Source: an uncultured delta proteobacterium (lineage in GTDB: Bacteria; Desulfobacterota; Binatia; UBA9968). From it: DNA of 64,000 bases. The notes under the pieces are model-generated. The model saw nothing but the letters and a program-made list of their open reading frames with translations, was not told the origin of the DNA and searched no databases. Made by a program: the position numbers and the translations under genes. This document shows positions 37,718 through 47,133 of the stretch, one piece after another; positions within the stretch are counted from its first letter, which is position 1; every line of letters begins with the position of its first letter. The stretch lies in the NCBI GenBank assembly GCA_963727625.1, contig CAVSHR010000004.1:448001-512000 (forward strand). Direction: 5' to 3'.

Positions 37718-38031
37718 GTACGCTCCGTTACACAATCCGCATTCTCAATCGCGCCATTTGCTGGGCTCAGCCCCCTCGCCAGCTACGAAACCATTTTGCC
37801 AGAACCTGAATGTCGTGGCCCAGCGCGATTACGCGGGTCTCTCATACGGTTGCTACCTAACACGCGAAGAATCGTCTAAACAACACCGTCGAATCCGTCA
37901 CAAAACACTCGACACCGGGCATCGATGTAGTTCGAATTCTCCATTCTCAATTCTCATTATCGATTCCCTCCCCCTCTTGCACCCCGGCCCATGCCTGAGC
38001 TATTGCAATGGGAAGAAAAGGAGCCAGATCA

Positions 38032-39114
38032 ATGGGCATAATCGAACGAACCTATGGCAAGGAAACCAACACCGTCATCAACGAAGTTTTGATCTCGTCG
38101 GACTCGCATGTCATCGAGCCCGCGGGGCTTTGGCAGAAACAATTGCCCAAGGCTTATCAGGATCGGGCCCCCGATTTTGGCGGGCAAAGACCCAACGACA
38201 CCCCCGGCGGCGCCCAGGACAAGAACAAGCGCATCTCCGAAATGGCCGCCGACGGCGTCAGCGGCGAAGTGCTCTACCCGACCCATGGCTTGAAGTGCAT
38301 AAGCCTCGACGATCACGAGTTGGAGGTGGCCTGTTGCCGGGTCTATAACGACTGGCTCATCGACTACTGCAGCGCCGCCCCCGATCGGCTCATCGGTATC
38401 GCCATGCTGTCGATGTACGACATTGACGAAGCGGTGAAGGAGCTGGAACGCTGCCGTAAGGCCGGCATGCGCGGGTCGGTGATCTGGCAGGTGCCGCCGC
38501 CAGAGCTCCCGTTCTCCTCGTCGCACTACGACAAGTTCTGGACCGCGTCTCAAGAACTCGACATGCCGGTCAATTTGCACATCTTGAGCGGCCACGGCTA
38601 CAGCCGCAGCCGCTCCCTCGGGCAGGGAGACACCCCCACCGGCATGACCGCCGAGCACAATAGCGTCAACATGAAACTGTTCCAGTCGGTCGATAGCCTT
38701 TACGATCTAATCTATTCCGGCGTGTTGGAGCGTTTTCCCAAACTGAAGATCGTTCTGGTCGAAAACGAGCTGGGCTGGATTCCCTTTGTCCTGGAACAGT
38801 GGGACTACTACTTCAAGCGCCATGGCGCCAAGCGCGAAGGGCTGAACATAACAAAACCGCCGAGCGAATACTTCCACAAGCAGATTTTCACCACGTTCTT
38901 CAACGACGCCGTCGGCGGCCATATCCTGTCGTGGTGGGGCCAAGACAACTGCATGTGGTCAAACGATTTCCCGCACGGCAATTCGACCTGGCCCAATTCC
39001 CGTCAGGTTGTCAGCCGCGACCTGGGCAGTCTACCGGCCGACGTACGCGCCAAACTGGTGCGCGAGAACGTCGCGCGGGTTTATAACATCCCGGTGCCGA
39101 GCCCGGTGCAGTAA
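38032..39114 (+). CDS. Amidohydrolase family 2 protein
   Basis: ISSDSHVIEP, EVLYPT, YNDWL, PVNLH, GVLERFPKLKIVLVE, MWSNDFPH. Confidence 0.92.
   Translation: MGIIERTYGKETNTVINEVLISSDSHVIEPAGLWQKQLPKAYQDRAPDFGGQRPNDTPGGAQDKNKRISEMAADGVSGEVLYPTHGLKCISLDDHELEVACCRVYNDWLIDYCSAAPDRLIGIAMLSMYDIDEAVKELERCRKAGMRGSVIWQVPPPELPFSSSHYDKFWTASQELDMPVNLHILSGHGYSRSRSLGQGDTPTGMTAEHNSVNMKLFQSVDSLYDLIYSGVLERFPKLKIVLVENELGWIPFVLEQWDYYFKRHGAKREGLNITKPPSEYFHKQIFTTFFNDAVGGHILSWWGQDNCMWSNDFPHGNSTWPNSRQVVSRDLGSLPADVRAKLVRENVARVYNIPVPSPVQ
38899..39114 (+). repeat. Copy 1 of a 216-bp duplicated amidohydrolase 3' end
   Basis: Aligns without gaps to 39792-40007 (27 mismatches by hand count). Confidence 0.9.
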
Positions 39115-39204
39115 TCGGCGGGAGCAGTTAACTCAATAGTTGTTGTCGCGGTTTAAGATGCTGGTGGAGAAGTGCGGCAAAACGTGCCCTTTTCCACCGA
39201 ACAG

Positions 39205-39423
39205 CTAGGTTGGGTTCGTTTGAATAATTGCCGGCAGCTTGTTGAGAGTAAGCTTTTTAAGATCCACTTTTCGGCTGGCATTATCGATGTCAATGCCCAC
39301 CAAGTTCCCTTCGGCATCATAGTCAAGAACGACACCCTCCGTGATCTCTCGGCTTTCGACGCTCGGCCGCTCAGAAAGATCTATATAAAGGGAGTCTGTG
39401 TCTGCATAATAATTGAGCTTCAT
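39205..39423 (-). CDS. DUF2283 family putative antitoxin
   Basis: MKLNYYADTDSLYIDL...ESREITEGVVLDYDAEGNLVGIDIDNAS. Confidence 0.88.
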   Translation of the reverse strand: MKLNYYADTDSLYIDLSERPSVESREITEGVVLDYDAEGNLVGIDIDNASRKVDLKKLTLNKLPAIIQTNPT

Positions 39424-39662
39424 GGCTTGAACCCTCTGTCTGGAAAAGCGTTGTGAACCGTAACTTTATCATCCAACGTGACAACTCTCAGAATTTTCCC
39501 TTCAAACTCCTCGATTTTGCCCCAAAACCGATACCGGTTTTGCTCTTGCGGCTCGCTTCGCAGCGGATTTTCCAAAACCTGAATACACCACTCCTTCTTC
39601 AAATAGGGACGCTTACGCAAAACCTCGTGCTCGAAATATTCCGTGAACCCGAATTGTGGCAC
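39420..39662 (-). CDS. Putative type II toxin (DUF4258/BrnT/RelE-like ribonuclease fold)
   Basis: 80-aa ORF ending RYRFWG....GKILRVVTL.D..TVHNAFPDR, coupled by an ATGA overlap to the DUF2283 gene. Confidence 0.7.
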   Translation of the reverse strand: MPQFGFTEYFEHEVLRKRPYLKKEWCIQVLENPLRSEPQEQNRYRFWGKIEEFEGKILRVVTLDDKVTVHNAFPDRGFKP

Positions 39663-39791
39663 TCCCAGAGGATAACCCGTTTCCCTTCAGATGACTAGGA
39701 TAACGAGGTCGCACCTGAGCAGCGGGGCGAAGGCCTCTCGATAAAAACTCTTCCCGCACGTATTTCTATGGGTAGGTTGTACGAGTCCTTG

Positions 39792-40007
39792 TTCGACGAC
39801 GCCGTCGGCGGTCACATCTTGTTGTGGTGGGGCGCCGACAACTGCATGTGGTCCAACGACTTCCCGCACGGCAACTCGACCTGGCCCAATTCCCGCCAGG
39901 TTGTCAGCCGCGACCTGGGCATTCTACCGGCCGACGTACGCGCTAAACTGGTGCGCGAAAACGTCGCGAAGCTTTACAATATCCCCATCCCGACGCCCGT
40001 TCAGTAA
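39792..40007 (+). pseudogene. Copy 2: orphan 3' end of the amidohydrolase gene
   Basis: FDDAVGGHILLWWGADNCMWSNDFPHGNSTWPNSRQVVSRDLG...PTPVQ*, near-identical to the C-terminus of 38032-39114. Confidence 0.9.
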
Positions 40008-40014
40008 ATGCAAG

Positions 40015-40049
40015 ACAGCCGCGGTTTGTCGCCGACAAGCCGCGGCTGT
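40015..40049. terminator. Strong hairpin between convergent genes
   Basis: ACAGCCGCGGTTTGTC-GCC-GACAAGCCGCGGCTGT starting 8 nt after the stop of copy 2. Confidence 0.65.
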
Positions 40050-40120
40050 TCTAAATCTCCCGGGAACAACCTTTCTGCCAAATTCATCGGCTGATCGAAC
40101 AGCCGATCGCGGCATCTAGC

Positions 40121-41551
40121 TCAATCAATGCCCGCCAGTTCCTTGGCCAGACGAACGAACGGGCTCAGATCATAGGCGCTTACGAGCCGCTGTTTGTTGG
40201 TGGCCAGGCTGGCGACGTTGTACATCTCAAACAGGAGCTGGCGCGAGCCGAACGAATCGCAGGCGTATTCCCACGCAAGTTTCAACATGCGAAACATTTC
40301 CTGCGTGCGCTCGTTCTCCCCGACAAAATAACGCCGGATTTGCTGACCGATCTCGGGGTTGTTCATGTCGGCCTGGCTCGGAGACATCAGGATGCCGGAG
40401 CCGCACAGCTCTCGTATCATCTGCAACATCTTGGGGTAGCCCTCGATCGAAAAGATGCGCGCAGCTTGCCCCGGCGTCCAATCGGGCAGGGTCAAGCCCG
40501 ATTGCGAGCGCACCGGGTTCATTTCGGCGGCATGGATGAATGCTCTCATCGTCTCCATGTAAACGATCGCGTCGGCCAGGGCTATTTGCACATGCGGTTG
40601 TTTCGAAGTGCCGAGATATTCGGCCATCGCGGCGCAGATCCCGAGCAGTACTTCTGCTTTGACCGCCAGCCGAACCAAAACATACCAGGGCCCAATGCCC
40701 ATCGCTCCCTGGAAGAGTCGCGCATAGAGACTCGGATCTGCGGGATGAGTTTGACGCAGATAGAACACGCGATCCCAGGGAATAAACACGTCGTCGAACA
40801 GCACCATCGCGTCCATCTCGTCCCAGTGCGGATTTAGCGGATGATCCTCGGGGTTTGGCGACGTCAGCGACTCCCGGCAGATGAGCTGGATGCCTTGGGT
40901 GTTTACCGGGACCGCGAAATACACCACCTCATCGGGCTGGAGGTTGGGTCTTGGCTGGGTCAGGCAAAGGATTTCATTGGCGTAGGGCGCCTGCGTTCCC
41001 ACTCCTTTGGCCCCTCGAACCACGATCCCGTCGGGCCGCCTCTCCACCACCCTCAAGTATTCCTGCTTGGCTTCCGGATGGCTTCGGTGATGAAACGGAT
41101 CGTTGAAAATAGTCGCGATGCTCAAATCGTTTTCGCGGCAATGCTCGAAGTAGCGCGTCACGTTCTCCGCGAAGCTCGGATTTTCTTCGCCGAAGACGTC
41201 GCGGCTGTCGTGCAACCCCAAAACCACCGTAGCCAGATGCTGCGGCAGACGTGCCGCCACCCCTCCGGCGCGGCGCACCAGGAACTCGTACATCTTGCGC
41301 TGCCGGATCAGATCTTCGATCGAATGGGGCAAAAGATAAGCGAGGCTTACCCGCTCGCCCGTCGCCGGTGAAATCATTGTCAGCAGCTCCTGATAGGCGG
41401 GATCATGCTGCAAGTCATAAACCGCGGCCACGCTGCGGGCGCAGCCCGCCAAACGGGGATGTTCGGTGACGTCCACCGATTCGCCCTGCAACCACACACG
41501 GCGCCCATCCCTCAGGCTATCGAGATATTGTTCTCCGCGACGTATCGGCAT
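40121..41551 (-). CDS. 4-hydroxyphenylacetate 3-hydroxylase-family flavin monooxygenase, oxygenase component
   Basis: GEQYLDSLRDGRRVWLQGE.VDVTEHP, GIVVRGAK..GT, DEMDAMVLFDDVFIPWDRVF, DSFGSRQLLFE. Confidence 0.9.
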   Translation of the reverse strand: MPIRRGEQYLDSLRDGRRVWLQGESVDVTEHPRLAGCARSVAAVYDLQHDPAYQELLTMISPATGERVSLAYLLPHSIEDLIRQRKMYEFLVRRAGGVAARLPQHLATVVLGLHDSRDVFGEENPSFAENVTRYFEHCRENDLSIATIFNDPFHHRSHPEAKQEYLRVVERRPDGIVVRGAKGVGTQAPYANEILCLTQPRPNLQPDEVVYFAVPVNTQGIQLICRESLTSPNPEDHPLNPHWDEMDAMVLFDDVFIPWDRVFYLRQTHPADPSLYARLFQGAMGIGPWYVLVRLAVKAEVLLGICAAMAEYLGTSKQPHVQIALADAIVYMETMRAFIHAAEMNPVRSQSGLTLPDWTPGQAARIFSIEGYPKMLQMIRELCGSGILMSPSQADMNNPEIGQQIRRYFVGENERTQEMFRMLKLAWEYACDSFGSRQLLFEMYNVASLATNKQRLVSAYDLSPFVRLAKELAGID

Positions 41552-41763
41552 TTACCCAGCTCTCAATAGAATTTTTGAGGTAATCAAACTCAACTCGACC
41601 GCCTTCGAGGCGAACCGTTCAGACTCGATCGAAACTATCCGATAACTTGACTCGAAACAATGTCAATTTGCGGGGAACGGAGTTGAGTTCGAAATGGCGC
41701 CCCTTGCACCAATGCGATGCCGGACTGGCGACTTGATGCCAGGCTAAAATAGGATACCAAGGA

Positions 41764-41823
41764 ACTTAACGCTCTGGTTCAGCGGCGGCGCGGAGTGCTA
41801 TCCGCTTCAACCGTTTGTTCGGC
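41764..41823 (-). mobile_element. attC: Integron attC recombination site (60 bp)
   Basis: Minus strand GCCGAAC-AAACG-GTTGAAGC-GGATAGCACTCCGCGCCGCC-GCTGAAC-CAGAGC-GTTAAGT, i.e. R''-5-L''-20-L'-6-R', with L'' one base longer than L'; begins 30 nt after the RT stop. Confidence 0.88.
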
Positions 41824-41853
41824 GGTTTTCCACTGACGTATCCTCGTCCTCGG

Positions 41854-43350
41854 TTAGTACATTGCTGCATTCTGCTTGAACAATTCCACTTCTTCTGGCT
41901 GAACCACTTCTGTCGCGTCCCCTGCATCAGCAATGACAATCTTGCGGCCATCTAAGGCTTTCTTGAGTGCCTCGCTTGCGATCCAGCTAGACTCCCAAAG
42001 CTGAGATGATGCCCCATTCACGACCTGACAAATAGGTTCGTTACTCTCGAACATGATGCCAACGGACTTAGGTTGCGTGACACGCTGGAGCCAAATTTCA
42101 AGGTAACCGTTGTACGGGACTCGCGCCATCTTTTCGCGTACTCTTGTCCACAAGCGCACCTTCTCTTCATTTGGCGCAAGTGAGATAAGATGGCTCAGAA
42201 TGCCGGCCACAGCCGGAAACGTCGAGGGTGAAACAAACGCAATATCTGTCGCAATCGCGACCTGTACGTCAAGGTCGTCGGGAGCTTCAGTCTGTTTTGA
42301 AATATTGGTGTGAAACTCACCAACCAACCTTCGCAAAGCTCCGCTATTTGGAAACCTCTGACCGAATAAATGCAGCCTTAAGAGCTGCTTTTGAATTGTC
42401 TTCGCGTTAGTTGTTCCGAGGTCTTGTAGCTCAATGCCGGCTAATTTATCTGGTTTGATCGATCCTTCCACTACGTTTCTGGAGGAAAATGTTTTTGATA
42501 CTCCGAGCCTCATCCCTACCGCTCGTAGCTTATCGCTGACTATCTTCAGGACCGCTTCGGCACGTTCGTCGCTATTTGCAAAAATTCTATAGTCGTCCCT
42601 ATATCGCAGTATCCGGATGTCAGTATTTCCCGCGAGAGCTAGGTTAATCTGCTCATCCACGTATCCAAGGACAATTTCCGCGATGAAGTCCATGAGGACC
42701 GATCCTTGCGCAATACCGTTGGTCTGGCCGAAACGACTAGCTTGGATATGGGAATCGATCTTGTTGCCGAGCAGAGCTTTATTCGTCTTTTCTTCCTTTG
42801 CTTTCGATAAGCCGTGCAACGCCCAAGCAATACTATGGGTGTACAGAGAGCCATAACAGTCGGTCACATCGGTATGGAAAACATGACTGAACTCCAGTGA
42901 ATAAGTCAGCGACCTTTGCTCAACGCTCTGCCACCAGCTTTTGATCTGAGTCGCAACATCCGTCTGGTGATCGACCGACATCACGGGCGCGCTGCAACAA
43001 TCAACTACACCGCCCGCAAATTCTTTGAGCCGCGCTCTTATGCTTTCCCAGTTCGCCTCCTCACAAATCACATTTACTAACGAGACGTAAATGGCCGGAT
43101 GTATCAACTCATAAGGCCGCCAGGCAAATTTTCCGTCCTTGTTTGCAATAAAGTTGTAGTTTACGTTCTGAAGTTCGTTGGGATTTGCGTTCTTAAACTC
43201 GGCATAGTTCCTGCCATTAAGAGCGGTTGAGACGTTATTCAGTATTGGTTCAAAACTGATGTAATTGGGCAGATCCCCGTTGAAGTAGCTGCTGCCCTTC
43301 AGAAAATGGCCTCTTGCCTCTTCGTTGGAAAGGTCAATCAATCGCTTCAT
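41854..43350 (-). CDS. Reverse transcriptase of the UG/Abi (defence-associated) class; DRT4/UG15-like is tentative
   Basis: NKDGKFAWRPYELIHP, HTDVTDCYGSLYTHSIAWA, GQTNGIAQGS..MDFIAE, RYRDDYRIF, helical C-terminal tail; visibly more AT-rich than its flanks. Confidence 0.88.
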   Translation of the reverse strand: MKRLIDLSNEEARGHFLKGSSYFNGDLPNYISFEPILNNVSTALNGRNYAEFKNANPNELQNVNYNFIANKDGKFAWRPYELIHPAIYVSLVNVICEEANWESIRARLKEFAGGVVDCCSAPVMSVDHQTDVATQIKSWWQSVEQRSLTYSLEFSHVFHTDVTDCYGSLYTHSIAWALHGLSKAKEEKTNKALLGNKIDSHIQASRFGQTNGIAQGSVLMDFIAEIVLGYVDEQINLALAGNTDIRILRYRDDYRIFANSDERAEAVLKIVSDKLRAVGMRLGVSKTFSSRNVVEGSIKPDKLAGIELQDLGTTNAKTIQKQLLRLHLFGQRFPNSGALRRLVGEFHTNISKQTEAPDDLDVQVAIATDIAFVSPSTFPAVAGILSHLISLAPNEEKVRLWTRVREKMARVPYNGYLEIWLQRVTQPKSVGIMFESNEPICQVVNGASSQLWESSWIASEALKKALDGRKIVIADAGDATEVVQPEEVELFKQNAAMY

Positions 43351-43516
43351 TTGGCCACAGACCTTTTCATGACGTCGACCTATCTAGTGAACTGCCGATT
43401 CGGTCCGCGGGTTATTATGGAAGCCATCCTCTGCGTCGAAGTCAGGAATCAGTTACAGGAATCAGCCTCAGATTTTTACGAATCGATTATCTAGTGATGT
43501 CTTCGGCGCCAATCTG

Positions 43517-43912
43517 TCACTTCCGAAAATCTTCTGCCCTCAACTCGATCGGCTTTCCATGCGGCGTTCGGTGCATGGCGCGCTCCCAGGCTCGGAAGTG
43601 TTCCGTGAGTGCCTGCTTTGAGGTCGCGCCTTTTTCCGCGACCATGCGTTCGAGCGTTGCGAGCCAGTGGTGGTAGTAGGTTTCGCCGGTGTCGGGATCG
43701 CCGGCGGCTTGGGCTTTTTTGATTTCTTCGCCAAGCATAGCGGACCACTCGGTCCAGGCGAACAATCCTTTTTCGTAGAGCGCCAGCCCCATTGCGAAGG
43801 CGTGAGCTTCCCAGGGCGCGCGAAAGACGGGACCGTTCTCGTCGCGCGGAATGCCCGGAACCGCGTCTGCCGCTTTGCGGGCGGCTTCGGGTTCAATCAA
43901 CTTTTCAGACAT
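43517..43912 (-). CDS. Nitrile hydratase accessory protein
   Basis: GPVFRAPWEAHAFAM, FAWTEW, YYHHWLATLE, RTPHGKPIEL. Confidence 0.92.
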   Translation of the reverse strand: MSEKLIEPEAARKAADAVPGIPRDENGPVFRAPWEAHAFAMGLALYEKGLFAWTEWSAMLGEEIKKAQAAGDPDTGETYYHHWLATLERMVAEKGATSKQALTEHFRAWERAMHRTPHGKPIELRAEDFRK

Positions 43913-43959
43913 GTTTTAGACCAGATCCAAACGACGCGAAGTAAAACCTTTCGTGAACA

Positions 43960-44199
43960 TCACGCAACGTTCTGCATTTTCGTTACGAAATCCCGTCCGG
44001 ACGTAGGAGGAGGCAATACCCTTCCCTCTTTCTTGTAAATCGCAATCGCCTCTTCGACGATCTCGCAGAGTTCGTTAAATACTTCTTTTTCATCGTCGCC
44101 GTGGTAGCCGCCTAAGATCAAGCCGGGCGCACTGCCGACGTAGCATTGATCTTGGACCGACCATTCGACGATTTTTGCATACTTTGCGCTGTGCTTCAT
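43960..44199 (-). CDS. HicB-like antitoxin (no HicA partner)
   Basis: YAKIVEWSVQDQCYVGSAPGL..GG.HGDDEKEV..EL.EIVEEAI..YKKEGRVLPPP. Confidence 0.8.
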   Translation of the reverse strand: MKHSAKYAKIVEWSVQDQCYVGSAPGLILGGYHGDDEKEVFNELCEIVEEAIAIYKKEGRVLPPPTSGRDFVTKMQNVA

Positions 44200-44208
44200 T
44201 TCTTTGAC

Positions 44209-44869
44209 TCAGGCATGTTCCAGATAAGGCTCAAACGCTTCAATGGAAACCTTCAATGTCGGCATCAGCGTCCGCGCCCCAAAGTTCCTGGGCATCGAAG
44301 CGCACGGTGTAAAGCCACTGGGGATCGTCGCCTTTGCCGGCCGCCACCGAGTCGGGAAAAGCGTGGGTGCCGTGCAGACGCTCGACAACGCCCACGTGGC
44401 CGCGTGCATAGCGCGGCAGGCGCGTGTGCGTCTTCGGGTGGATGTTCTTCGTGCGCACGCGATCATCGATTTTGAACTTGGCGGGTCCTTGGGCCGGCCG
44501 GTAAAACGAGCCCCGTTTGGTAACCTTTTCAATATCGGCCAATGCAAACGGGCCGCGGGCCAAATTCTTCGCCGGACGCAGCGCGTGCCCGGCTGCGACC
44601 TCGTCGGCGTCGATGAGACCGTGCTCGATGAGCAAGTTTTGATTGCGCAGGAACCACTTCTCGTAATATGAGCGCGTCAAATAGATCGACGGCGCTAACT
44701 TCTCGATGGTGTAGCGGCTGGTGTCGATGGTCCAGGCGCGGAAGACGCCGATGGCGCGGCTCATCGCCAGCACGCGCCCCTCCCAGCGATCATGAAAAAC
44801 CGGCTCGTTGGGCTTGGGCTCGACCTTGCCGAACCCGTCCATACCGCCCATATCGTGAACGCCGTCCAT
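44209..44869 (-). CDS. nthB: Nitrile hydratase beta subunit with an apparent +1 frameshift near the 3' end
   Basis: MDGVHDMGGMDGFG, HTRLPRYARG, QWLYTVRF..QELWG; the conserved tail TLKVSIEAFEPYLEHA* (stop 44209) is out of frame and the in-frame stop is at 44240. Confidence 0.9.
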
Positions 44870-45495
44870 CAGGCCACCTCGCTCGGTTTTTTCGCCAGGC
44901 CGGTGCCGACCATGGAGTCGCGCGTGACCAGCTTGGCGAGCTGCGTTTCACTCCAGCCTTCGGTTCCGGCCGGACGCATCGGCACGACCAGGTAGCGGGT
45001 CTCGGCCGTCGAATCCCAAACCCGAATTTCGGTCTCGGCCGGCAGCGTGACGCCGAAATCGGCCAATACCGAGCGCGGCTCCTTGACGACGCGCGACCGG
45101 TAAGCAAACGACTTGTACCAGGTCGGCGGCAGGCCGAGCACATCGGTTGGATAGCAGGAGCACAGAGTACACACGATCATGTTGTGCACCTGCGCCGTGT
45201 TCTCGACGGCGATCAGATGCTCGCCCACGTTGCCCACCTGGGGCGCGAGGCCGGCCACCGCCTTGCTCGCATCCTCGAGCAGCGCCGTGCGAAATCCAGA
45301 ATCGCTCCACGCCTTCGCCACCACCTGGGCGCCGATATGCGGGCCGATCTTGGTCTCGTAGAGCTCGACGATGCGGTCGAGCGCCGCCGTTTCGATATAA
45401 CCCTTCTCGACCAAAATGGTTTCGAGCGCGCGCACCCGCAAATCCATCTCGGTCAGATGGGAACCCTCATCATGATCGTGTTCGTGTGTCGCCAT
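44869..45495 (-). CDS. nthA: Cobalt-type nitrile hydratase alpha subunit
   Basis: VCTLCSCY (Co-type claw motif), GLPPTWYKS.AYRSR, VWDSTAETRYLV.P.RP; start at MATHEHDHD. Confidence 0.96.
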   Translation of the reverse strand: MATHEHDHDEGSHLTEMDLRVRALETILVEKGYIETAALDRIVELYETKIGPHIGAQVVAKAWSDSGFRTALLEDASKAVAGLAPQVGNVGEHLIAVENTAQVHNMIVCTLCSCYPTDVLGLPPTWYKSFAYRSRVVKEPRSVLADFGVTLPAETEIRVWDSTAETRYLVVPMRPAGTEGWSETQLAKLVTRDSMVGTGLAKKPSEVA

Positions 45496-46289: not shown

Positions 46290-47033
46290 TCAGTGGAATA
46301 TGCTCCCCCCATCCACGACTATCGCCTGCCCTGTCATGAAGTCGCTGTCGGATGAGCAAAGAAACACCAGCGTGCCCATCAAATCGTCCGGAGTTTGCAG
46401 CCGTTTGATCGAGCGGGCTTTGAGCTGCAATTCGGTCAGCTCTTTGGGCGCGGTTTGACCTTCGTGCTCGACCAGGCCCGGCGCGATGGCGTTGACGCAG
46501 ATGCCGTACTCGCCGACTTCGCGAGCAAGCGAGCGGGTCATGCCGATCAGCGCCGCTTTGGAGGCGACGTAGTGGAGAAAGTTGGGCGTGCCCCAGTAGG
46601 CGGTGGACGACGAGATGTTGATGATCTTGCCGCTCTTCTGCTCTCTCATCTGCGGAAAGACCGCTTTGGCGCAGAGAAACGGTCCCTTGATGTTGACCGC
46701 GGAGACTTTGTCCCATTCCTCGGCAGTGATCTCGTAGAACGGATGGCGCTGAATGGCGATGAAGATCGCCGCGTTGTTGACGAGAATATCGATGCAGCCG
46801 AAGGCTTTCACCGCTTCCACCGCCATGCGATTGGTGTCTTCTTCCTTCGACACGTCGACTTTGAGCGCGAGAGCCTTTCCGCCCTTGGCGCGAATCTCCT
46901 CGGCGGTCACTTCTCCGTCGAGAATATCCGCAACCACCACAGCCGCGCCCTCTTCGGCCAGTTTACGGCAGTAAGCCGCGCCGATATGGCGCGCCCCGCC
47001 CGTCACGATGGCGACTTTCCCCGCCAGCCTCAT
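46290..47033 (-). CDS. Short-chain dehydrogenase/reductase
   Basis: VTGGARHIG, DILVNNAA, NISS, YVASK, VNAIAPG. Confidence 0.93.
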   Translation of the reverse strand: MRLAGKVAIVTGGARHIGAAYCRKLAEEGAAVVVADILDGEVTAEEIRAKGGKALALKVDVSKEEDTNRMAVEAVKAFGCIDILVNNAAIFIAIQRHPFYEITAEEWDKVSAVNIKGPFLCAKAVFPQMREQKSGKIINISSSTAYWGTPNFLHYVASKAALIGMTRSLAREVGEYGICVNAIAPGLVEHEGQTAPKELTELQLKARSIKRLQTPDDLMGTLVFLCSSDSDFMTGQAIVVDGGSIFH

Positions 47034-47044
47034 AACCACCTCCG

Positions 47045-47128
47045 GGAGTGATGGAGTAATGGAGTAGTGGAGTGATGGGTCCGGATCCGAAACCCAATGC
47101 TCCAGTACTCCAACACTCCCATACTCCA
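47045..47128. repeat. Inverted repeat with tandem GGAGTRRT octamer arms
   Basis: GGAGTGAT-GGAGTAAT-GGAGTAGT-GGAGTGAT-GGGT ... ACCC-AATGCTCC-AGTACTCC-AACACTCC-CATACTCC. Confidence 0.85.
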
Positions 47129-47133
47129 ACTCT

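Follow-up and report, generated by a model that had tools for sequence, protein, structure and literature searches.

What kind of reverse transcriptase (RT) is encoded by the solitary gene that lies between a nitrile hydratase operon and an HpaB-like gene in the 64,000-nucleotide stretch of contig CAVSHR010000004.1 analyzed here (the window), and how did it come to be there? A preliminary description of this DNA had read the gene as a mobile anti-phage RT cassette, carried with an integron attC site, inserted at a secondary site, and perhaps affiliated with DRT4/UG15 or representing a new subtype. We conclude, with good confidence, that the element is a promoter-less integron gene cassette of about 1.6 kb (43378 to 41770), that its only gene specifies a polymerase of the Abi-P2 family, and that it docked after the nitrile hydratase operon, from which it would be expressed by read-through and beside which it would serve in defense. 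The earlier reading was right in kind, as this is a defense-type RT cassette with an attC, but the family is Abi-P2 and the window copy may be immobilized.

The polymerase gene (41854..43350, minus strand; stop codon 41854-41856) is an intact open reading frame (ORF) of 498 amino acids whose translation contains the motifs TDVTDCY, GIAQGS, and YRDD, just as had been described. Its GC fraction (0.46-0.51) is lower than that of the flanks (0.55-0.64) or the contig (0.566). Pfam recognizes only the RVT_1 core (residues 155-288); the PADLOC profile AbiP2 (PDLC03744) matches end to end (E 9.1e-193, 639.5 bits, RT residues 1-495 aligned with positions 4-487 of the 489 in the profile). PADLOC matches were also obtained to UG14 (E 8.1e-49, residues 28-350), to Drt6 (E 8.3e-45, residues 20-388), and to the best Drt4 model (E 5.6e-39, residues 17-287 only). 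None of the eight NCBIfam matches reached its own cut-off, and that to Drt4 scored 122.4 bits against a cut-off of 450 over residues 25-287 only. The group II intron RT model TIGR04416 gave 41.6 bits against a cut-off of 300, the retron St85 model gave 26.3 bits against 235, and an Rfam scan of 39000-45000 (E ≤ 10) returned P17 alone, a chance match at E 1.9, with neither an intron RNA family nor one for attC.

The closest solved structure by sequence is that of Abi-P2 (PDB 7R08; E 2e-72, RT residues 1-491), whereas UG15 chains align with the RT core only (E 3e-10). An AlphaFold2 model computed from an alignment of 62 family representatives (pLDDT 93.0, pTM 0.93) is helical from about residue 300 and superposes on Abi-P2 7R08 with a TM-score of 0.83-0.87 over 511-518 alignment columns, helical domain included; the corresponding scores were 0.61-0.64 for DRT4, 0.63 for DRT6, 0.51-0.55 for UG15, and 0.47-0.58 for AbiK. 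In the 7R08 alignment, Tyr30 of the RT pairs with Tyr61 of Abi-P2 (EC30 protein), the priming residue carried by the loop that joins helices 2 and 3, and the catalytic aspartates pair with the same residues of 7R08. The landmarks of the protein are accordingly the putative priming residue Tyr30, Asp161 of motif A, Tyr250-Arg-Asp252-Asp253 of motif C, and a C-terminal helical domain at about residues 300-498. Among the 62 representatives, P28, D161, D252, and D253 are invariant and Y30 is conserved in at least 90%; the family as a whole is large (cluster representatives: 3506 at E ≤ 1e-3, 554 at E ≤ 1e-30). When phage records were searched with tblastn, the type genes of P2-EC30 and P2-EC58 were recovered at 29.8% identity and 99-100% query coverage, and any RT match at all was confined to six records. 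The end-to-end profile match, the 7R08 fold, and the conserved residues therefore make the 498-residue RT, as judged from its sequence and predicted fold, a member of the Abi-P2 family. The tentative affinity to DRT4/UG15, or the suggestion of a new UG subtype, draws on genuine matches of the RT core to Drt4 and UG15 models and structures (5.6e-39; 122 bits; 3e-10; TM-scores 0.51-0.64). These matches are limited to residues 17-287 or 78-288 and fall far under the 450-bit cut-off, whereas the AbiP2 profile covers the full length and the superposition on 7R08 takes in the helical domain. The DRT4/UG15 identity is refuted at the level of both sequence and fold, and we give this alternative hardly any credence.

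The gene is followed, after a spacer of 30 nucleotides (nt; 41824..41853, minus strand), by a 60-nt attC at 41764..41823 on the minus strand (read 41823 to 41764). Its four boxes are those claimed in the preliminary description: R'' at 41823-41817, a spacer at 41816-41812, L'' at 41811-41804, a variable stem at 41803-41784, L' at 41783-41777, a second spacer at 41776-41771, and R' at 41770-41764, with the expected crossover between G 41770 and T 41769. We scored the site with home-made covariance models: R1 was trained on four long attCs of the same genome; R2 on 50 sites that R1 had detected in this genome and its genus, with the candidate and the same-locus sites of congeners excluded; and R3 on 53 sites, with sites of other phyla added and the candidate again excluded. 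Model-guided alignments were used because MAFFT misplaced the 3' boxes of attCs of unequal length. With R2, the candidate was the first match in the window, with ends at exactly 41764-41823 (25.7 bits, E 1.5e-4; next best 12.0 bits, E 1.2). With R3, it was again first, with the same ends (33.0 bits, E 1.7e-7; runner-up E 1.7), and genome-wide it ranked 15th of 22 matches at E ≤ 1 (E 1.7e-5). An attC model does therefore score the site, and no other site in the window scores with R2 or R3, in agreement with the earlier remark that a second clear attC was missing. The R'' box and spacer are common to the attCs of the closest homologous cassettes, and the attC sites beside the integron integrase gene (intI) of this genome have the same R''-spacer-L'' sequence. 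Relative to the 72-nt attC of the closest homologues, the variable stem of the candidate is shorter and its boxes are mismatched. A whole-genome blastn-short search with the 113 nt behind the RT gene gave matches of 13-17 nt only, and no second copy. A rule-based attC detector of our own was dropped because it missed the candidate and lacked specificity: out of 70 loci, it made calls in 24 on the RT strand, in 15 on the opposite strand, and in 12 after shuffling.

The RT gene is foreign to its lineage. It was found in none of the 24 same-genus genomes searched, so it is not vertically conserved at this locus, and one of 16 same-order genomes has a weak, partial RT-domain match (26% identity); the low GC points the same way. 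(Genus-wide counts here take in genome G005, of which no sequence is in any alignment or model.) The picture of a single-gene, defense-type RT without a partner ORF, on an integron cassette, is upheld in that the attC is real and the gene foreign.

Pfam confirms both of the neighbors named earlier. On the same strand, upstream of the RT, lie genes for nitrile hydratase alpha, beta, and accessory proteins, the accessory gene (43517..43912, minus strand) being the immediate neighbor; downstream is an HpaB-family aromatic hydroxylase gene (40121..41551, minus strand), with orthologues in nine congeners at 85-92% identity. In two congeners, G019 and G014, the HpaB gene adjoins the nitrile hydratase accessory gene too, and comparison of these relatives at the site is informative. 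In G019, the gap measures 233 nt and holds no gene and a different, 58-nt attC-like site (R2 15.4 bits, E 0.081; R3 18.3 bits, E 0.008). In G014, it holds a long attC after an oxidoreductase-like ORF. Elsewhere in the genus, in G045, a 960-nt cassette whose attC is strong (73.9 bits) comes after the same accessory gene. The right flank (41678..41769, minus strand), which starts at the TT of the R' box, is common only to G019 and G014 and is the conserved docking side: from the R' box (CGTTAAGTTCC; ...AAATTCC in G014), the three genomes are alignable again, on into the HpaB leader. Shared sequence thus resumes at the position where an integron integrase cuts, as is predicted by integrase action and not by homologous recombination. 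The preliminary description was correct in calling this a cassette insertion, but its one-off secondary site is doubtful, since other attC-ended inserts occupy the same junction in G019 and G014; the junction is therefore a recurrent docking site.

At least 12 phyla contain relatives of the RT (62-91% identity), and many of these stand in attC arrays. At E ≤ 1e-10, there were 4615 homologous proteins; the best 120 of these are 78-91% identical, nearly all 498 amino acids long, and have Aromatoleum, Geothrix, Planctomycetes, and Salinisphaera among their sources. Carriage on a cassette accounts for the 78-91% identity within one RT clade across Betaproteobacteria, Acidobacteriota, and Planctomycetota. 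We surveyed loci with one genome per species and kept 80 of 158 relative-encoding stretches (44-90% identity), which their record titles assign to at least 12 phyla. In these loci, all 18 attCs that the genus-trained R2 found at E ≤ 1 lie on the RT strand, and five loci have one 35 nt after the RT stop; with R3, 45 of 46 attCs lie on the RT strand, an attC starts within 80 nt after the RT in 14 of the 80 loci, and an attC ends just before the RT in five. Of 70 usable loci, 26 have an R''-like box in the 120 nt that follow the RT (other strand, 2 of 70); of 72, 15 have its complement, an R'-like box, in the 60 nt that precede the RT (other strand, 2 of 72). Thus the gene shows presence/absence polymorphism, has homologues in attC arrays, and forms one promoter-less ORF co-oriented with an attC close behind, as a cassette member should. 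Metagenome contigs from four public sequencing runs (four studies) carry parts of the RT at 85-99% likeness, and those that match the attC cease to match at 41758-41767, a weak hint of other contexts of the cassette; no contig among those of the four runs spans the cassette, and of the public runs, all of them DNA, none contained more than 0.15 of the sampled words.

Some relatives of the RT were seen in other settings. One lies on an Agrobacterium leguminum plasmid (68.6% identity, in two pieces with no annotated gene, and may be broken), another lies on a Paracoccus plasmid (52.8% identity), and plasmids of Enterococcus and Staphylococcus often carry Abi-P2-like genes that are more distant (208 records). 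In three loci, an ORF for a DnaQ-like 3'-5' exonuclease follows the RT homologue after about 40-110 nt (L092, 7604-8176; L136, 7449-8292; L140, after 7494); it stands behind a short attC-like site in L092 and is split over two frames in L136. The pairing may be chance or may represent a two-gene variant.

A candidate source of the recombination activity is encoded on the same contig (C4). The intI gene (C4:370924-372081, minus strand) belongs to an integron at C4:364115-378277 (loci L009 and L011), matches TIGR02249 with 467.8 bits against a cut-off of 265 over C4:370957-371898 without stops, and has Pfam integrase domains. It is the only match above the cut-off in the genome and lies outside the window, 119 kb from the RT. 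The statement that intI is lacking is therefore true within the window, but an intact intI with its own cassettes exists 119 kb away. attC sites flank it in the same orientation, downstream at 364115-370034 and upstream at 376751-378277, and the integrase is therefore co-oriented with its own cassettes. The attC family found by R1 occurs in 21 genomes of the genus out of 31, that of the window (G000) included. Other attC clusters in the genome are located at C4:786917-792442, C4:1358084/1359582, and C11:65984/68064. Tandem repeats of 9 bp (TTGAACGnT) occur near the integron (L009, 7704-7762 and 14840-14953), and a similar run lies past the HpaB locus in G018 (L027).

At its left end, the cassette has a 28-nt 5' leader (43351..43378, minus strand) homologous to the conserved cassette start in other phyla (38 loci compared). 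There, homologous cassettes begin TTCGGCGTCATGA directly after G; this start is the complement of the R'' box GCCGAAC, as expected because cassettes are cut at G/TT (the slash marks the cut). Between the leader and the stop of the nitrile hydratase accessory gene is an unexplained stretch of 138 nt (43379..43516, minus strand). Within it, 34 nt (43386-43419) match, at 94% identity, the 3' side of an element in congener G008 that forms a hairpin and ends in a GTTAGGC box, and these 34 nt may be what is left of an attC on this side. We considered and rejected another attC ahead of the RT, with boxes placed by eye at about 43455-43388, since R2 and R3 leave it unscored and it folds no better than shuffles (z +0.31 and +1.17); the value for G000, +0.31, is no signal. 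Homology with 13 congeners on this side ends at about the accessory gene stop codon; among 14 congeneric loci, there is no common G/TT left junction after that stop, and a canonical one is seen in none of G000, G019, and G045. In six congeneric loci (L152, L157, L158, L161, L162, and partly L148), the accessory gene is followed by a fragment like the middle of a short-chain dehydrogenase gene (46290-47129), and the first 30 or so nt after the accessory stop in the window may be a relic of such a fragment. A search of the minus strand at 43351-43516 gave no site resembling a promoter or a terminator, and the leader is too short for a promoter, so the RT is likely transcribed by read-through from the co-directional nitrile hydratase operon.

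A number of observations weigh against a cassette origin, or limit how much it can explain. R1 gave the candidate 14.7 bits (E about 9 genome-wide), although R1 is too narrow; because four homologous RT cassettes had supplied attCs for the training of R3, the cleaner test is that with R2, the sole model independent of the cassette family. In the R2 and R3 alignments, the R boxes and the L boxes of the site each contain two non-standard pairs, and the lowest-energy fold of the 60-mer has no advantage over those of shuffled sequences (z -0.56, with 48 of 200 doing equally well). Upstream, neither R2 nor R3 scored an attC, and the G008 element is likewise unscored. The G/TT boundary is not found at the 5' end, where the window copy has GG followed by TCGACG, one T short of the GTT core. 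Across the 119 kb between intI and the RT cassette, R3 detected no attC at E ≤ 1. Among the homologous loci, a covariance model places an attC directly after the RT in only 14 of 80, of which four (L067, L068, L070, and L130) were in R3 training, and many RT homologues stand outside a cassette context. Finally, identity to the sole characterized Abi-P2 proteins is about 30%, and enzymatic activity and defense are ascribed to this RT clade by homology. Do these points favor an attC look-alike, arisen by chance or decay, with the RT having arrived otherwise, for example, on a different mobile element? The missing fold signal, the low R1 score, the silence of our rule-based detector, and a left end without GTT would all fit, and the search for mobile-element genes covered intI only. 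This account has to accommodate a site that is the top match of two models with exact ends and that has its R'' box and spacer in common with the closest homologous cassettes, as well as homology to two congeners that resumes at the R' box; the contigs from all four runs also stop matching at 41758-41767, a weak sign at 85% likeness. We therefore regard a look-alike as very improbable.

If the site is a genuine attC, the variation at the locus could still have spread through conserved flanks, as at minimal-mobile-element hot spots, where variation is exchanged in this way. Homologous recombination in the nitrile hydratase accessory gene and the HpaB leader would then have done most of the work, the integrase having acted once, elsewhere or long ago. 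That homology in 13 congeners ends near the accessory gene stop whatever follows, that G000, G019, and G045 have no canonical left junction, and that gene-tail stumps are present at the locus are consistent with such exchange; the right-hand break at the R' box in three genomes fits the integrase instead. The two routes are compatible, and we consider recombination as the main route unlikely. A stronger case can be made that the integrase brought the cassette and that it is now a fossil, fixed in place by a degenerate left site and a weakened attC, its intact gene being kept for defense or simply young. The left junction of the window copy departs from the G then TTCGGC or TTCGAC of the homologues, the attC differs from the 72-nt one of the closest homologues in its shortened variable stem and its mismatched boxes, and no upstream partner site scores. 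Pulling the other way, the ORF is not truncated and matches its nearest homologue at 91% identity, the attC still scores, and a left site is not needed for integration of further cassettes at attC. Fixation is a real possibility to which we incline less than to its opposite. Since the left junction has no GTT, the window copy may in any case no longer be excisable.

For the docked Abi-P2 cassette that we favor, the following course of events may be proposed. An integron integrase, perhaps the one encoded 119 kb away, would recombine the folded attC at G/TT of the R' box, and the cassette would dock at the junction that follows the nitrile hydratase operon and that holds other attC-ended inserts in congeners. 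Read-through from the co-directional operon would then provide expression. By analogy with Abi-P2 of P2-like coliphages, the protein may form trimers or hexamers, prime on its own Tyr30, and make untemplated single-stranded DNA, which would underlie abortive-infection defense against phages. With a left junction lacking GTT, the copy in the window would perhaps stay where it is.

The surroundings of the cassette show further signs of small-scale variation. The nitrile hydratase beta and accessory genes are separated by a 79-amino-acid ORF (43960-44199, minus strand) to which no Pfam family matches; the place of this ORF is empty in 13 of 14 informative congeneric loci and is taken by a different insert of about 620 nt in G021, and the ORF is a second small lineage-specific insertion in the nitrile hydratase operon. 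Beyond the HpaB gene, a full amidohydrolase gene (38008-39114, plus strand) is accompanied by a 79-amino-acid copy of its own 3' end at 39768-40007; a DUF2283 gene (39205-39423) and an overlapping 80-amino-acid ORF (39420-39662), both on the minus strand, lie between them. The region 38008-40007 thus has the pattern of a gene-tail stump beside a small cassette.

How does this locus compare with known systems? Abi-P2 of P2-like coliphages (orf570 of P2-EC30 and orf544 of P2-EC58; PDB 7R08) is described as trimeric (in the crystal, as a dimer of trimers) and as making DNA without a template, and a Y61F variant makes no DNA (Figiel et al. 2022, PMC9508834). The RT of the window resembles it in colinear full-length homology, in a predicted bilobal fold with a helical domain replacing the thumb, in the putative priming tyrosine and YRDD, and in being a single-gene system in a horizontally acquired variable slot. 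It differs in identity (about 30%), in length (498 versus 541-546 amino acids), and in residing on an integron cassette of an uncultivated environmental bacterium rather than in a variable region of a prophage. DRT4/UG15 and AbiK, Abi/UG class polymerases for which the synthesis of DNA from a protein primer has been reported, have the RT core and general architecture in common with it, but only the core aligns (TM-scores 0.51-0.64 and 0.47-0.58, versus 0.83-0.87 for Abi-P2). Group IIC-attC introns are self-splicing introns that insert into attC sites and carry RT genes, and they too link an RT-family gene to an integron attC; here, in contrast, the RT is the cargo of the cassette, scores 41.6 bits against 300 for an intron RT, and is accompanied by no intron RNA family.

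Phage-defense cassettes of Vibrio chromosomal integrons and of mobile integrons were reportedly described in 2025 by Darracq and colleagues, Kieffer and colleagues, and Getz and colleagues. Like such cassettes, the present one is a compact single gene, promoter-less, attC-ended, and variable between close relatives (Darracq et al. 2025). The main text of that preprint contains none of the terms "reverse transcriptase," "DRT," and "retron," although its supplementary tables may list cassettes of this sort (Darracq et al. 2025). At about 1.6 kb, the element of the window is large for a cassette, and unlike those phage-defense cassettes it stands alone, 119 kb from the integrase. It also recalls the SALIN and CALIN, terms said to stem from Cury and colleagues in 2016. 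In the usage of the Darracq preprint, these are single or clustered attC sites without an integrase. As in such elements, an attC and its cassette lie away from any intI in a genome with further sites of the kind; the differences are that intI is on the same contig and that the junction, holding other cassettes in congeners, is a recurrent docking site.

Abi-P2 enzymes and defense cassettes in integrons are both already known kinds, and the added interest of the locus, which is modest, lies in the spread of the cassette across phyla. Two facts that searchable papers have not connected are linked here, namely that Abi-P2-type protein-primed polymerases are anti-phage and that integron cassettes store anti-phage genes; our literature search found no paper joining AbiP2 or Abi-P2 with an integron. 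The cassette offers a compact, promoter-less, portable form of an Abi-P2-type enzyme for biochemical work, and the locus is a three-genome natural example of cassette turnover far from an integrase. A wider reading, on which we are nearly evenly divided with a slight lean against it, is that the 498-amino-acid Abi-P2 clade is a pan-bacterial integron cassette with ends of its own (leader TTCGGCGTCATGA, R'' GCCGAAC), present in at least 12 phyla at 62-91% identity, and that the end of the nitrile hydratase operon serves as a satellite docking site, supplied in trans by a distant integrase and lending transcription to incoming cassettes. If this is true, few non-resistance cassettes would be shared as widely as the Abi-P2 cassette, which would provide a natural tracer of integron traffic between phyla.

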